Shown here: positions 8,263 to 22,763 of the stretch, piece after piece
How the letters are laid out: each line of letters opens with the position of its first letter
How positions within the stretch are numbered: the stretch's first letter is position 1
Virus record (IMG/VR): IMGVR_UViG_2788500396_000001
Span: 859 to 64,858 of that record
Strand: one strand, 5' to 3'
From: a virus
Lineage: Duplodnaviria; Heunggongvirae; Uroviricota; Caudoviricetes
DNA: 64,000 bases
Position numbers and translations under genes: made by a program
Notes under the pieces: model-generated
The model's database searches: none
Told to the model about the DNA's origin: nothing
Seen by the model: the letters and a program-made list of their open reading frames with translations, nothing else

Positions 8263-10443
8263 TCAAGTTTGTCCAGAAGCATATTGATAAAACAGCTCCC
8301 TCAAAGCAATGATGTTTTTTGGGCCAGGCAAATCTTTCCCAATGGTTTTATACCATCCATAAAAAAGATTCTCTTCTTTTGAGATCAAAGAAGAGGTGTA
8401 TTTGTAATAACCAAATTGGTTCACCGTGTCAACCACATTCCGCATGTGTTTCCACATATTATAGTAATGTAGTTTTAGCTTAACCATAAACCCATCAAAG
8501 TCTTCAAGCACAAATCCCTCGATGTAAGATCCTCTATACATATAGTCTGCCGCTGTCACTTCACTATACCAATCGCAGAATGACGGCCAGTCTGTGATAA
8601 TATATGCGAGGTGCTTGCATTCAAACTTCAGCATATTTGATACATAATCAACATCAAAGTATGGGTGCTTTTTAAATGTTGGATCATTTTCAACAATATC
8701 AAGCAAAACAAGTTTTTTGCTCTCATATCTGATAATATGAGGATCATTCTCAGGATCAATACACTCAAATACCAGAGTTACATTATTGTTTTTGAGATAT
8801 TCTTTAACTGCGTCAACATCCTGAACTTGTTGATAAAAAATCTCTCGTAAATTGTTTGCATATGGTCCAGTTGGGGTAGACTTGCTTGTGATGAATAAAT
8901 CACCTGTTTTATGGTCGTAAGATACGAGCCCCAAGAACCCATTTTCCTTGACGTATGCCATAACAGGGAATCTCAATACGTTCTTCAGCACGCCGAACTT
9001 GGTCTCTGATCTTTCGTTGATATTGAAAAATTTCTCGTATGCTCTTGCGACAACTTTATTGCTCTCAGTATCAATGAATAACCCACGAGCCTTTATGGTT
9101 TGCTCATCCCAAGCCCTATCATAGAATGCTTTCGGCGTAAAGTTAAATGAAGAGATATGGTCGAATCTTTTTTCCTGAATGTACTTGTTTTGTCTCATCG
9201 ACTCTACAAGTGAAGTAACATCAACGGCATCAACATTGTTCTTCTTTTTGATGTTTAGGTCTCTGAATACAGTGTTGCGGGTTTCGATTGTATGAAACCC
9301 AGATTCATCAAGCGTAACTACCCGCAAAGATCCACCGAACTCGACAGAATCTTCGAGGTCAAAACATCTCTTGGATAAATGCGTAGGCAACGATTTGGTG
9401 TTTCTGTGGCCAAAGACTTGATATACATTATCTGGCATTACTTCATCGAATGTTTTTGCAACAATCTCATAGTCATCGTACTGGCCAGTTCCTTTGATCA
9501 TCTCTTCTGTTGGAACGAGAGATAGATTTTCCGGAATTAAACTCAGGCCACCATGCGTCGCTAAAACAATCTTGTCATGAAAGCGATAATAAGCACATTG
9601 TGCAAATTTTCTGTATAAGATGCGAGCATCTTTTTCAGAAATTCCAGCATCAATTAACTCTTGCTTGGTTCTCTTTTCGAACTCTTGTGATTTTGCTGGC
9701 TTCCCTTTCCCGTAGCAGTAGATCCATCTCTCATGGTTTCCTTCCAAGAGAAGAACATTCGGCATTTCGAGTATGGAACAGAGAAATTTGACAACCTCTC
9801 CATTCTCCAGTCCTCGGTCAATATAGTCACCCGTGAAGATGTAAAACTCATCCGCATGAATTTCTCCCCCTAAATAGTTGTTTAAAACCGTATAGCAGCC
9901 ATGAATATCACCAATGTGGTGAATCTTCTTATATTGAGATAAGTCCATCGGCTTATACCAGATTGACTGCAGCTGATCAGGGGCAATAACCTTGATGCCG
10001 GATGGTATCTTCTGGGTGGCAAATCTGGAATAAATCCTCTCGATCACATCGTCTGGGACTTGCTTATACTGTGGACGCATAGCATTCTGTTTCTTGCATA
10101 CATCGATTGGAATGTTGGTCATATCAACAAGTACAATTCTGTACCGATACTCGCTGGCAAGCGTTTTGTACCGATTCATTTCTGATGTTTTTGAGTTTGT
10201 AGCATCGATAACGGTAAGCTCTCCTCGTTGCATCCGTGCTTCCAGTAACTGGAAAAGGATTTCCCAGACAGTTTTATCGTTACTTTGGCTGATGCCATAA
10301 GATCCATCTACTCCTAAGATAGGGCTTTGACACATCAGTCTAAGATCGTCTGCGGAAAGAGAATAGGGCTTTAAGCCATTATTCTCAATCCACGTAGTCT
10401 TGCCGCATCCAGGAGCACCGCGCAGTAAAATTAAAACTCTCAT
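8263..10443 (-). CDS. Pnkp-like RNA-repair enzyme: 5'-kinase + calcineurin-type 2',3'-phosphatase + ligase-like adenylyltransferase
   Basis: Three domains are read from the translation:
- N-terminal P-loop LLRGAPGCGKTTW.
- Central metallophosphoesterase motifs GDIHGC, GDYIDRG and EGNHE.
- C-terminal nucleotidyltransferase motif YVKENGFLG (KxNG).

This is the same domain order as bacterial Pnkp. The ATG at 10443 has a GAGGT RBS. Confidence 0.7.
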   Translation of the reverse strand: MRVLILLRGAPGCGKTTWIENNGLKPYSLSADDLRLMCQSPILGVDGSYGISQSNDKTVWEILFQLLEARMQRGELTVIDATNSKTSEMNRYKTLASEYRYRIVLVDMTNIPIDVCKKQNAMRPQYKQVPDDVIERIYSRFATQKIPSGIKVIAPDQLQSIWYKPMDLSQYKKIHHIGDIHGCYTVLNNYLGGEIHADEFYIFTGDYIDRGLENGEVVKFLCSILEMPNVLLLEGNHERWIYCYGKGKPAKSQEFEKRTKQELIDAGISEKDARILYRKFAQCAYYRFHDKIVLATHGGLSLIPENLSLVPTEEMIKGTGQYDDYEIVAKTFDEVMPDNVYQVFGHRNTKSLPTHLSKRCFDLEDSVEFGGSLRVVTLDESGFHTIETRNTVFRDLNIKKKNNVDAVDVTSLVESMRQNKYIQEKRFDHISSFNFTPKAFYDRAWDEQTIKARGLFIDTESNKVVARAYEKFFNINERSETKFGVLKNVLRFPVMAYVKENGFLGLVSYDHKTGDLFITSKSTPTGPYANNLREIFYQQVQDVDAVKEYLKNNNVTLVFECIDPENDPHIIRYESKKLVLLDIVENDPTFKKHPYFDVDYVSNMLKFECKHLAYIITDWPSFCDWYSEVTAADYMYRGSYIEGFVLEDFDGFMVKLKLHYYNMWKHMRNVVDTVNQFGYYKYTSSLISKEENLFYGWYKTIGKDLPGPKNIIALRELFYQYASGQT

Positions 10444-10453
10444 AGATACCTCA

Positions 10454-10732
10454 TTACATAAAACAAATAGCTGTAATCGGAGCGGCTTGATCATATTGTG
10501 CTAGATCATCTTTATCATACAGAGACTCATATCCTTCAACTTCCCAAATAAAACTGTTTGGGTCTGGATATTGTTCAGTGATTGGGGTTCTTGTTACAAT
10601 CATTTTTGAAGCTTCACCAAGATAATCTGCATAATCCGCTCTCACATATACCAGAGCATTGTCCGGGATATTAGAAGATAATATATTTTTTAAATCTCTG
10701 GCGCTAAACATTGTTACTTGTATACCTCTCAT
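10454..10732 (-). CDS. hypothetical protein
   Basis: 92 aa. ATG at 10732 preceded by AGAGG. Tightly packed between the vWA and Pnkp-like genes. Confidence 0.5.
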   Translation of the reverse strand: MRGIQVTMFSARDLKNILSSNIPDNALVYVRADYADYLGEASKMIVTRTPITEQYPDPNSFIWEVEGYESLYDKDDLAQYDQAAPITAICFM

Positions 10733-10735
10733 ATC

Positions 10736-21790: not shown

Positions 21791-21803
21791 AATTACTCCT
21801 ATT

Positions 21804-22736
21804 TTAAATATGAATAATCTTATTGTACAAAACTTGAAAATGATCGGTTATTTGCATATCTTGGTGGTAATGGCCACAAAACCATTTTGTCTTCGGAGAC
21901 ATCCTCTTAATGAGTTGCAAAAAATCTGTAAGTTGGTCACTCCTATAAGATGTGCTTATTTTATTCAAAAGTGATGTTGGAGCACAGTGGGTAATAACAT
22001 AGTCAATATCCCAACCAACACTCTCTAAATTGCGAATGGCTTCAGCATATTCTGAATCGGAAGGCATCTCTTCTGGCCACCAATCAATGCCTTTTACTCT
22101 GAACATGCTGCCATTCCGGCGCATCCTCCAGTAAGTTGTGCTGAAGTCAAGATCATCGGGGTCCAGTATTCCATCCCACACATCATGGGATGCAGCTCCG
22201 CCCATCGTAAAAAATTTCTTCCCGGCGATGTTAAATACCTGTCCTCTCATAAGGTGAAGAATGTTTTCTCTGAGAACATGAACCTTTCCGCCTTTCCATT
22301 CGTCGCAAGGGAAAGAATTGAGCAGGTCGAAATTTTCATGGTTGCCGTCAACAAACAGCAGCGTAAATGGTTTAGACTCAATCCAGTCAAGCCAATACTG
22401 ATCTCTACGGCTACCATCCCAGACTCCGCCAAAGTCTCCACAAATGATTACGAAGTCTTCTCTTGTTAAAAACTTTCCTTCTGTGAAACGGCTATTCCCA
22501 AATTTACTAAAATCGCCGTGTGTATCTCCTGTGATGTAAATCATATTCGGTATCACTTCGCTTCTTTCAGATCTCCATCGTAAATATAAATAGGCCCACT
22601 TGAAGAATAATACGGAGACATGTAGCCATATCTTCATCTCATATCGTTTATTTAAATATATCGCAATCTCGTCTTCTGAGAGATTTTCAAGAGCGCTGGA
22701 AACTGCTTCTCCGTATGTCTCCAGAAGATCGCACAC
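21804..22736 (-). CDS. calcineurin-like metallophosphoesterase (possibly with 64-aa N-terminal extension)
   Basis: GDTHGD, GDFGG, GNHE motifs. The in-frame GTG at 22736 has AAGGAGA 6 nt upstream. The canonical phosphoesterase start MIYITGDTHG is at 22544. Confidence 0.65.
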   Translation of the reverse strand: MCDLLETYGEAVSSALENLSEDEIAIYLNKRYEMKIWLHVSVLFFKWAYLYLRWRSERSEVIPNMIYITGDTHGDFSKFGNSRFTEGKFLTREDFVIICGDFGGVWDGSRRDQYWLDWIESKPFTLLFVDGNHENFDLLNSFPCDEWKGGKVHVLRENILHLMRGQVFNIAGKKFFTMGGAASHDVWDGILDPDDLDFSTTYWRMRRNGSMFRVKGIDWWPEEMPSDSEYAEAIRNLESVGWDIDYVITHCAPTSLLNKISTSYRSDQLTDFLQLIKRMSPKTKWFCGHYHQDMQITDHFQVLYNKIIHI

Positions 22737-22763
22737 ATCATGTCTCCTTATAAAATTAAGATT

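Follow-up and report, generated by a model that had tools for sequence, protein, structure and literature searches.

Twelve tRNA genes and a modular set of putative tRNA end-repair genes in a large uncultivated phage

tRNA genes and predicted end-repair enzymes

The stretch of 64,000 nucleotides analysed here as a whole (the 64-kb window; positions 859 to 64,858 of the Caudoviricetes record IMGVR_UViG_2788500396_000001 of IMG/VR) has a G+C content of ~42% and nearly all of its coding sequence on the minus strand, and encodes 12 tRNAs together with a fusion of kinase, metallophosphatase and RNA ligase modules, an RlaP-family nucleotidyltransferase, a CCA-adding enzyme and a Thg1-like protein (Table 1), a set that would suit the repair of broken or trimmed tRNA. 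Identities were assigned by searches of Pfam, NCBIfam, PHROGs and the Protein Data Bank (PDB), and tRNA genes were located with ARAGORN and Rfam. The open reading frames (ORFs) named in a preliminary description of the stretch are present where it placed them, and hidden Markov model (HMM) searches back nearly every assignment; the kinase/phosphatase/ligase, the Thg1-like protein, the CCA-adding enzyme, the PF10127 protein, the HD and vWA proteins, the radical S-adenosylmethionine (SAM) enzyme and the metallophosphatase all find HMM or fold support. The region falls in the auxiliary, non-structural portion of a large phage that has not been cultivated. Since none of the ORFs scanned was recognised as a virion gene, the label of phage rests on PHROG matches and IMG/VR relatives, and a nucleotide search of 50,697 phage records gave no match, which indicates that there is no close cultured relative among them. 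Relatives of these sequences derive from gut and rumen samples, and where they occur in isolate genomes, these are of Clostridia; the genome loci, namely gut and rumen metagenome-assembled genomes together with Ruminococcus, Dysosmobacter and Hominicoprocola isolates, suggest gut Clostridia as the hosts.

The longest ORF of the fusion gene (8263-10494) has 743 codons, but its homologues begin at M18, making a 726-amino-acid (aa) protein that starts at 10443 the likely true product. Its three modules match the Pfam families AAA_33 (residues 21-158, 1.2e-19), Metallophos (residues 190-320, 1.5e-12) and RNA_lig_T4_1 (PF09511, residues 468-678, 8.3e-39, 134 bits against a gathering score of 28.3), and the protein matches PHROG 8238 over its full length (1.4e-218). 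Among PDB chains it matches the kinase of CthPnkp (4gp6), lambda phosphatase (1g5b) and Trl1 ligase (9qw7 and 6n0v), and residues 465-694 match T4 RnlA. All catalytic motifs are invariant in an alignment of five homologues at 44-52% identity: in the kinase, G31-K32 of the P-loop and D49; in the phosphatase, GDxHG (195-199), GDxxDRG (222-228), GNH (252-254) and GHRN (362-365); and in the ligase, KxNG (K516-G519, with N518) and, for motifs IV and V, E659-G660 and K672/K674. The preliminary description had called this protein a Pnkp-like kinase/phosphatase/ligase. The three modules do lie in one protein, but the ligase is of the Rnl1/Trl1 type and not that of bacterial Pnkp: the bacterial Pnkp model TIGR04075 is matched (6.8e-21) over positions 6-417 of 851 only, with 74 bits against a cut-off of 750. 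By its sequence, the fusion is judged to be Pnkp-like in architecture, yet outside the Pnkp/Hen1 family, and no match to Hen1 was found in the ~60 window ORFs scanned, which do not include every small ORF. The gene is flanked by a 92-aa ORF without matches and by a cell-wall hydrolase gene. Homologues, usually annotated just as "RNA ligase", occur in SPbeta-like, Alicyclobacillus, Brochothrix and Twort-like Staphylococcus phages, and the fusion is widespread in Herelleviridae, SPbeta-like and gut phages; no biochemical study of a kinase-metallophosphatase-Rnl1 fusion was found in the literature searched.

The gene described at first as a minimal Pol-beta nucleotidyltransferase is a member of the RlaP family (PF10127, 4.9e-19, 69.4 bits against a cut-off of 23; PHROG 388, 3.2e-57) with its catalytic motif intact (G49-S50...D61-I-D63). 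It directly adjoins the CCA gene and is separated from the ligase by 9 kb. Damaged RNA receives one or two nucleoside monophosphates at its 3'-OH from RlaP enzymes, which are also required to restore aminoacylation of over-damaged tRNA (PMC12776372, a 2025 preprint); according to the same preprint, it was Burroughs and Aravind (2016) who named the family, after its association with RNA ligases. The CCA-adding enzyme is of class II, with a PolyA_pol head (9.5e-38), a tRNA_NucTran2_2 body (3e-17) and an HD domain (7.3e-8), and carries GGxVRD...DxD and FHDxGK motifs; it matches PHROG 2244 (tRNA nucleotidyltransferase, 6e-69). The Thg1-like protein scores 101.8 bits with PF04446 (3.6e-29; cut-off 29.2), matches PHROG 4717 (1.2e-95), contains the carboxylate motifs VDGKAFH and SDE, and groups with a chain deposited as "Thg1-like uncharacterized protein" (4kgk, 1.4e-63), the tRNA(His) guanylyltransferase chains scoring much lower (1.4e-10 to 3e-6). 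From its family, it could be a 3'-5' polymerase that rebuilds tRNA 5' ends.

ARAGORN finds exactly the 12 tRNA genes counted previously, in three groups on the minus strand between 13118 and 16469, and Rfam supports all of them except tRNA-Ser(GCU). The 3' ends read from the sequence include CCA in 12 of 12, none of the 12 is a tRNA-His, and ARAGORN reports no intron in them. Conceivably, such an array might only support translation, the tRNAs offsetting differences in codon usage between phage and host while the CCA-adding enzyme, the Thg1-like protein and the ligase take part in routine tRNA maturation or quality control. Many of the anticodons begin with a wobble U (UGA, UAA, UUC, UGC, UAU, UUU, UUG, UCC and UGG), the genes of the window make substantial use of the matching A-ending codons (GAA 0.60, AAA 0.55, GGA 0.37), and many phages have tRNA arrays without any repair genes. 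However, with CCA encoded throughout and tRNA-His absent, the CCA-adding and Thg1-like enzymes would have no maturation to perform on these tRNAs, which favours repair over maturation as their function; without introns, there would be no splicing for a heal-and-seal ligase; and the combination of kinase, cyclic phosphatase and ligase, with RlaP in addition, is a hallmark of break repair (PMC12776372; PMC3675462). We regard translation support as quite unlikely to account for the region.

Two further proteins may act on RNA ends. The stand-alone calcineurin-like metallophosphoesterase (Metallophos, 8.6e-11; PHROG 1649, 4.3e-37; motifs GDTHG, GDFG and GNHE), the longest ORF of which reaches 22736 although its homologues start at MIYITGD, is a candidate end-healing enzyme for 2',3'-cyclic phosphates or 3'-phosphates, judging by its sequence; its homologues lie 1-8 kb from the ligase in 7 of 46 lineages. 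The HD protein (12102-12959) has no Pfam match of its own, but several of its homologues carry PF01966, and one is named as an HD domain protein in UniRef. Its invariant residues (H37, H50, H86-D87, H105, H137, H164 and D167) form an H...HD...D pattern, and its AlphaFold2 (AF2) model (pLDDT 91.4) is closest to the HD exoribonuclease YhaM (9h3f, 3e-4), a 3'-5' enzyme, the remaining matches all belonging to the HD superfamily. PF01966 in homologues, the HD motif and the fold support the assignment as an HD phosphohydrolase, and the modelled fold makes the protein a candidate for healing or trimming RNA 3' ends. The HD gene lies 4-6 kb from the ligase in 11 of 80 loci, which represent 4 lineages.

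The kinase/phosphatase modules of the fusion, the stand-alone metallophosphatase and the HD protein might instead process DNA ends during replication or recombination, along with Sak and genes of nucleotide metabolism. Bacterial Pnkp-type and HD-Pnk end-healing enzymes accept DNA ends as well as RNA ends in vitro, and the neighbours of these genes in the window are the Sak annealing protein and then ribonucleotide reductase, thymidylate synthase, a guanylate-kinase-like protein, dUTPase and a C5 methylase. Nevertheless, the sealing module is of the RNA ligase type, by PF09511 and by its Trl1 and Rnl1 matches, and is no DNA ligase; RlaP, the CCA-adding enzyme and the Thg1-like protein belong to RNA-specific families; and in its fold the HD protein most resembles an RNA exonuclease. 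DNA-end processing therefore appears very improbable.

Table 1. Genes of the window discussed in the text, with the evidence for each assignment
Feature	Position	Strand	Evidence
Predicted trifunctional heal-and-seal enzyme: P-loop 5'-OH polynucleotide kinase, binuclear metallophosphatase and Rnl1/Trl1-type RNA ligase	8263..10443	-	Pfam, PHROG, PDB, alignment
vWA-domain protein, MIDAS intact	10736..11407	-	Weak VWA match, PHROG 7371, alignment
HD-superfamily phosphohydrolase/nuclease	12102..12959	-	PF01966 in homologues, invariant residues, AF2 fold
tRNA-Ser(UGA)	13118..13205	-	ARAGORN; Rfam (63.4 bits); CCA gene-encoded
Five tRNAs: Leu(UAA), Leu(CAA), Glu(UUC), Ala(UGC), Thr(CGU)	14606..15152	-	ARAGORN, Rfam; CCA encoded in all
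Six tRNAs: Ile(UAU), Lys(UUU), Gln(UUG), Ser(GCU), Gly(UCC), Pro(UGG)	15802..16469	-	ARAGORN; Rfam (5 of 6); CCA encoded in all
Class II CCA-adding enzyme with HD domain	18367..19722	-	Pfam, PHROG 2244, motifs
RlaP-family Pol-beta nucleotidyltransferase	19697..20725 (ORF to 20773)	-	PF10127, PHROG 388, GS...DxD motif
RlmN/Cfr-like radical-SAM enzyme	20822..21790	-	PHROG 24834, PDB profile, AF2/Foldseek
Calcineurin-like metallophosphoesterase	21804..22544	-	Pfam Metallophos, PHROG 1649, motifs
SPFH/Band-7 protein	31511..32464	-	Pfam Band_7 (4.8e-25); 56 nt from Thg1-like gene
Bacterial-type Thg1-like protein	32520..33371	-	Pfam Thg1, PHROG 4717, PDB 4kgk
Macro domain, TARG1/DarG/Poa1 type	33693..34181	-	Pfam, NCBIfam, PDB
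Small BT0820-type HAD phosphatase	34343..34759	-	NCBIfam HAD_phos_BT0820 (7.5e-24, below cut-off); PDB 2obb (1.5e-16)

Recurrence of the genes in related loci and a proposed repair pathway

Conservation of the grouping was assessed in 235 related loci, comprising 80 from IMG/VR centred on the radical-SAM gene, 80 from IMG/VR centred on the ligase, and 75 from species-representative genomes (loci of the radical-SAM family being L003-L082 and L164-L238); a scan of IMG/VR with the single ligase protein gave no match, and the ligase loci were recovered with an alignment as the query. The contigs concerned are ~40-160 kb long. Several unrelated layouts bring three to five of the genes together inside 20 kb. 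Combinations noted in individual loci are macro, ligase, Thg1-like, metallophosphoesterase and RlaP genes in L097; ligase, RlaP and CCA in L102 and L150; ligase, RlaP and Thg1-like in L108, L113 and L115; metallophosphoesterase and an RlaP-CCA-radical-SAM series with five tRNAs in L032; and the series radical-SAM-vWA-RlaP-CCA in L025 and L029. With direct adjacency defined as a distance within 600 nt, the Thg1-like gene adjoins the radical-SAM gene in 20 loci, largely of one clade, RlaP adjoins CCA in 4 loci besides the window, and the ligase adjoins RlaP in 2 (L108 and L113). After dereplication of the ligase loci, the 10 kb around the ligase hold one or more other repair homologues in 18 of 46 lineages and two or more in 8 of 46, RlaP being within this distance in 6 of 46. 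On whether relatives keep the genes together or have them scattered, a question raised in the preliminary description, the outcome is halfway: the genes do recur near each other, but only as variable, reshuffled subsets, and the linkage is partial.

Several observations weigh against a dedicated repair system. The layout of the window is reproduced in none of the 235 loci; control genes (C5 methylase, w42059 and an integrase-like gene) are approximately as frequent near the ligase as the repair genes are; tRNA arrays occur near the radical-SAM gene in just 4 of 30 related loci; and the two closest cultured-phage homologues of the ligase examined, in SPbetaL3 (SPbeta-like) and Alicyclobacillus phage KKP_3916, have no partner genes within 12-15 kb. 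Within the window, the block is broken up by genes for Sak, an HNH homing endonuclease, a recombinase-like protein and a coiled-coil protein, the Thg1-like module is 10 kb away from the remaining repair genes, and healing modules of the Pnkp type might in principle work on the ends of DNA, in a neighbourhood rich in genes of DNA metabolism. The preliminary description saw a dense toolkit at 8263-22740, where the RNA-related genes are indeed found, but about half of the genes there, including these four and small ORFs, are unrelated to RNA. It also placed the Thg1-like gene in the same transcriptional block, which amounts to the near-total minus-strand coding of the 64-kb window; a scan for promoters and terminators that might set operon limits gave counts equal to the shuffled expectation.

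These facts lend weight to an alternative in which the genes are independent auxiliary cargo for counter-defence or metabolism, shuffled horizontally into one non-structural region, gained and lost singly, and united by a theme without cooperation or co-regulation. Gene order and composition vary widely, with no repetition of the arrangement in any related locus; the control genes keep company with the ligase as often as the repair genes; the radical-SAM gene is found beside DNA methylase genes (14 and 13 of 65 lineages) as often as beside any repair homologue (14 of 65); nothing in the promoter and terminator scan defines an operon; and the whole window is coded on one strand. On the other hand, RlaP-CCA, ligase-RlaP and Thg1-radical-SAM pairs are directly adjacent in differing backgrounds, the layouts with three to five of the genes inside 20 kb are unrelated to each other, and RlaP owes its name to an association with RNA ligases (PMC12776372). 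We give independent cargo a probability slightly short of even. As for the suggestion that the genes form a coordinated system, the recurrent linkage favours it in part, but the shuffling, the control genes and the rarity of tRNA arrays make a modular kit the stronger case; the related loci support a recurrent modular association of linked genes rather than a fixed operon or system.

The best explanation of the region, and in our judgement a probable one on the basis of its sequence, is a supply of tRNAs combined with a modular kit for tRNA end repair. The three end-repair chemistries proposed initially, one for anticodon-loop breaks and one for each end of the tRNA, are all encoded near the tRNA array according to domain and motif evidence. 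At a break in the anticodon loop, the metallophosphatase module of the 726-aa fusion would open and remove the cyclic phosphate, a task for which the stand-alone metallophosphatase, the HD protein or the HD domain of the CCA-adding enzyme may likewise serve, as they may in clearing blocked 3' ends; the P-loop kinase of the fusion would phosphorylate the 5'-OH, and its Rnl1/Trl1-type ligase, adenylylated at K516, would seal the nick. If nucleotides were excised too, as by RloC-type nucleases, RlaP might restore 1-2 nucleotides at the 3'-OH before sealing. The CCA-adding enzyme would rebuild trimmed 3'-CCA ends, the Thg1-like polymerase would refill truncated 5' acceptor ends with the 3' strand as template, and the 12 phage tRNAs could replace species beyond rescue. 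The sequences show directly which domains are present, that their catalytic motifs are intact, and that the genes are linked recurrently, though in shuffled form, in related phages; what the enzymes act on, in which order, whether they cooperate physically and how they relate to host defence we infer from the families to which they belong and from earlier studies (PMC12776372, PMC3675462 and PMC7824862). The vWA, Band-7, RlmN-like radical-SAM, macro and HAD proteins are neighbours of this set that may or may not take part in repair.

An RlmN-like radical-SAM family and other neighbouring genes

The radical-SAM assignment is borne out by a CxxxCxxC cluster motif (C68/C72/C75, invariant) and by an RlmN fold. 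The protein belongs to PHROG 24834 (6e-90), its best viral match is a COG0820 protein, a PDB profile search retrieves RlmN (6.7e-6) and Cfr (3.5e-3), and the top nine Foldseek matches of its AF2 model (pLDDT 85.7) to PDB chains are all RlmN (E ~1e-7); its scores are below the NCBIfam cut-offs for both RlmN (26.7 bits against 290) and Cfr (24.2 against 530). It shares with E. coli RlmN an MGEP motif and a C-terminal DxDxxxCG, in which C311 aligns with the methyl-carrier cysteine C355 and is kept in homologues at 27-58% identity. However, at the position of the resolving cysteine, C118 of E. coli, seven residues before the cluster motif, the window protein has T61, and all 15 divergent homologues have Thr or Ala, so that the canonical two-cysteine mechanism of RlmN is impossible for the protein as it stands. 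The invariant C171 was considered as a substitute for C118 and rejected, not being conserved in more distant homologues. In the AF2 model a small beta domain replaces the N-terminal helical domain of RlmN. Relatives are numerous (6,828 at E <= 1e-5 among 8,000 candidates scored), the best 120 listed being 68-95% identical to the window protein, and the family is conserved at ~65-70% identity versus ~40-50% for neighbouring phage proteins. In one clade the protein has a 115-aa N-terminal extension and its ORF begins 14 nt after the Thg1-like gene.

Its modelled fold makes the enzyme a candidate C-methylase of adenine in nucleic acid, and at most a possible member of the repair set. It directly adjoins the Thg1-like gene in the 20 loci mentioned above and RlaP-CCA modules in several other layouts, but its commonest neighbours are the DNA methylases; these being equally frequent, its status as an established member of the repair kit was rejected. 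It might be an unrecognised component of phage tRNA repair that C-methylates adenine in phage, host or repaired tRNA, or forms a covalent intermediate with it, which could block re-cleavage and make it a functional analogue of Hen1, but we consider this unlikely. In locus L025 a SAM synthetase gene (MetK, 1919-2977, plus strand) is located two genes upstream of the radical-SAM gene, which fits a SAM-consuming function. The literature searched, which did not cover Burroughs and Aravind (2016), contained no papers that link a radical-SAM or RlmN-like enzyme with phage tRNA repair; nor did an RlmN-like radical-SAM family with an altered cysteine set appear in the literature searched.

The vWA protein, listed as an ORF at 10736-11539, has its true start at M45 according to alignment. 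Its Pfam VWA score (1e-3) is below the cut-off and PHROG 7371 (1.9e-58) is of unknown function, yet the residues of its metal ion-dependent adhesion site (MIDAS), D57-x-S59-x-S61, T124 and D160, are complete, and the earlier assignment holds. Its gene is found between the radical-SAM gene and RlaP-CCA in L025, L026 and L029. The protein is a possible scaffold or cofactor; neither a MIDAS vWA protein nor a YhaM-like HD protein was encountered as a repair neighbour in the literature searched, again exclusive of Burroughs and Aravind (2016). Similarly, the SPFH/Band-7 protein is a possible scaffold component. No tRNA-like or other structured RNA was found near the Band-7 and Thg1-like genes at permissive Rfam thresholds. 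The abstract of the 2016 study by Burroughs and Aravind is said to link SPFH/Band-7 modules to RNA repair.

The macro and HAD proteins are what they were first said to be, but their place in RNA repair is doubtful. The macro domain scores below the Pfam cut-off (Macro, 3.8e-4) and matches the NCBIfam DarG antitoxin model (2e-14) over positions 1-147 of 338, the macro half only, with 53.7 bits against a cut-off of 250; its PDB matches are BT1257, 5m3i, 5m31, C6orf130 and an ADP-ribose 1''-phosphate phosphatase. This TARG1/DarG-like domain may undo the ADP-ribosylation of DNA or RNA, for instance in answer to DarT-type toxins, on a different axis of defence, or alternatively could process ADP-ribose-1''-phosphate; no DarT-like neighbour was seen among the neighbouring ORFs searched. 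Since the metallophosphatase of the fusion is expected to leave no 2'-phosphate at the junction, the proposed repair pathway would not need a macro domain. The HAD protein is a small phosphatase of the BT0820 type.

A third metallophosphoesterase gene (51244-51906, minus strand) encodes a protein 95% identical to the product of a gene of L034 that lies beside a cluster of radical-SAM, w51911, Thg1-like and macro genes. Within the tRNA array, tRNA-Ile(UAU) (15802-15892, minus strand) has 91 nt and a variable arm of ~21 nt as in class II tRNA, unusual for an isoleucine tRNA, and an HNH_3/NUMOD1 homing endonuclease gene occupies 15187-15770 (minus strand). Upstream of the listed ATG of this gene, the frame reads WKDIPGYEGLYQV (by eye), resembling the N-terminus of such endonucleases, with no preceding ATG, GTG or TTG; thus, the gene may be in decay or begin at an unusual codon. 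The only hit of the search for structured RNA mentioned above is a weak one to the RAGATH-27 RNA motif, over its full length (13467-13550, minus strand; 38 bits, E 0.066, well below gathering), located between a 218-aa coiled-coil gene and tRNA-Ser(UGA). A plus-strand ORF at 13466-14326 was rejected as a gene, being the shadow of the true minus-strand gene 13559-14215, which matches PHROG 1491 (labelled "tail fiber protein") and has homologues ~2 kb upstream of the ligase in eight related loci.

Elsewhere in the window, the gene for the large subunit of ribonucleotide reductase (938-4348, minus strand), with a C-terminal TSCPD domain, is split by an intein with a LAGLIDADG homing endonuclease. 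A TnpB gene (IS605 OrfB / Cas12f-like; 40043-41161, minus strand) falls where local G+C is 0.52 (40-42 kb, versus ~0.42 elsewhere), homologues of which are scattered near the ligase and radical-SAM genes of related contigs, and an integrase-like gene is found at 41225-42046. Also on the minus strand are genes for three further enzymes, namely a DUF1848 protein (27109-27870), homologues of which recur near the radical-SAM gene in related loci, a PAPS-reductase-like domain (29954-30667) and a second radical-SAM protein (37600-38481), and a grouping of DUF4121, ParB-like, LPD34 (large polyvalent protein-associated domain) and DUF932 genes (46281-47189 and 53245-55952).

Relation to known repair systems

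Defences that cleave tRNA (PrrC, RloC, PARIS-type systems and acceptor-end toxins) are a major theme of conflict between phages and their hosts, and what is known of the answers of phages comes largely from T4 and from genome comparisons among jumbo phages. As the window shows, the predicted kit in mid-sized phages of gut anaerobes is unusually complete, with replacement tRNAs, heal-and-seal functions in one polypeptide, nucleotide fill-in, and rebuilding of 3' and 5' ends. Both the kinase-metallophosphatase-Rnl1 fusion and the RlmN-like radical-SAM family are tractable targets for biochemistry, and evidence that the modules act together would speak for the view that immunity aimed at tRNA exerts strong selection in the gut.

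The fusion has the same order of modules as Pnkp of the Clostridium thermocellum Pnkp/Hen1 system, an N-terminal P-loop kinase, a central binuclear metallophosphatase and a C-terminal ligase, of which the kinase and phosphatase are recognisably related, whereas the ligase is of the Rnl1/Trl1 type and no Hen1 was found. With T4 Pnk and Rnl1, the answer of that phage to the anticodon nuclease PrrC, it shares the logic of a kinase, a 3' phosphatase and an Rnl1-family ligase that seals tRNA anticodon loops, but one fused polypeptide takes the place of two proteins, the phosphatase is a metallophosphoesterase and not a DxDxT/HAD enzyme, and RlaP, CCA-adding and Thg1-like enzymes are added. Trl1 of fungi and plants is another trifunctional heal-and-seal enzyme with a PF09511-type ligase, and the best PDB matches of the ligase module (9qw7 and 6n0v) were deposited as "tRNA ligase"; the domain order of the fusion is reversed with respect to Trl1, and a metallophosphatase replaces the 2H cyclic phosphodiesterase, so that neither a 2'-phosphate junction nor a Tpt1 step would be expected. 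The radical-SAM protein, for its part, has the fold and the three motifs of RlmN/Cfr, methyl-carrier cysteine included, but departs from these enzymes in its Thr or Ala at the C118 position, its N-terminal beta domain, and scores far under the family cut-offs.

Taken as a whole, the region is closest to the repertoires of jumbo phages surveyed by Iyer et al. 2021 (PMC7824862, section 3.4.9), which comprise tRNAs, an ATP-grasp RNA ligase, PNK, phosphoesterases, RlaP, a CCA-adding enzyme, sporadic Thg1 and macro domains; for the RNA-repair components behind them, that survey refers to Burroughs and Aravind (2016). The parts list and the interpretation as counter-defence are the same, and the novelty ascribed to the combination in the preliminary description was overstated, the repertoire of large phages having been published already. 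The relatives of the window differ from jumbo phages in being contigs of ~40-160 kb from gut and rumen, with the three healing and sealing activities in one polypeptide, and the survey mentions no RlmN-like radical-SAM enzyme and no SPFH/Band-7 protein, its four mentions of vWA being in contexts other than repair. The window therefore adds no new principle; it is an unusually complete example of a known repair repertoire, in a group of phages outside that survey.

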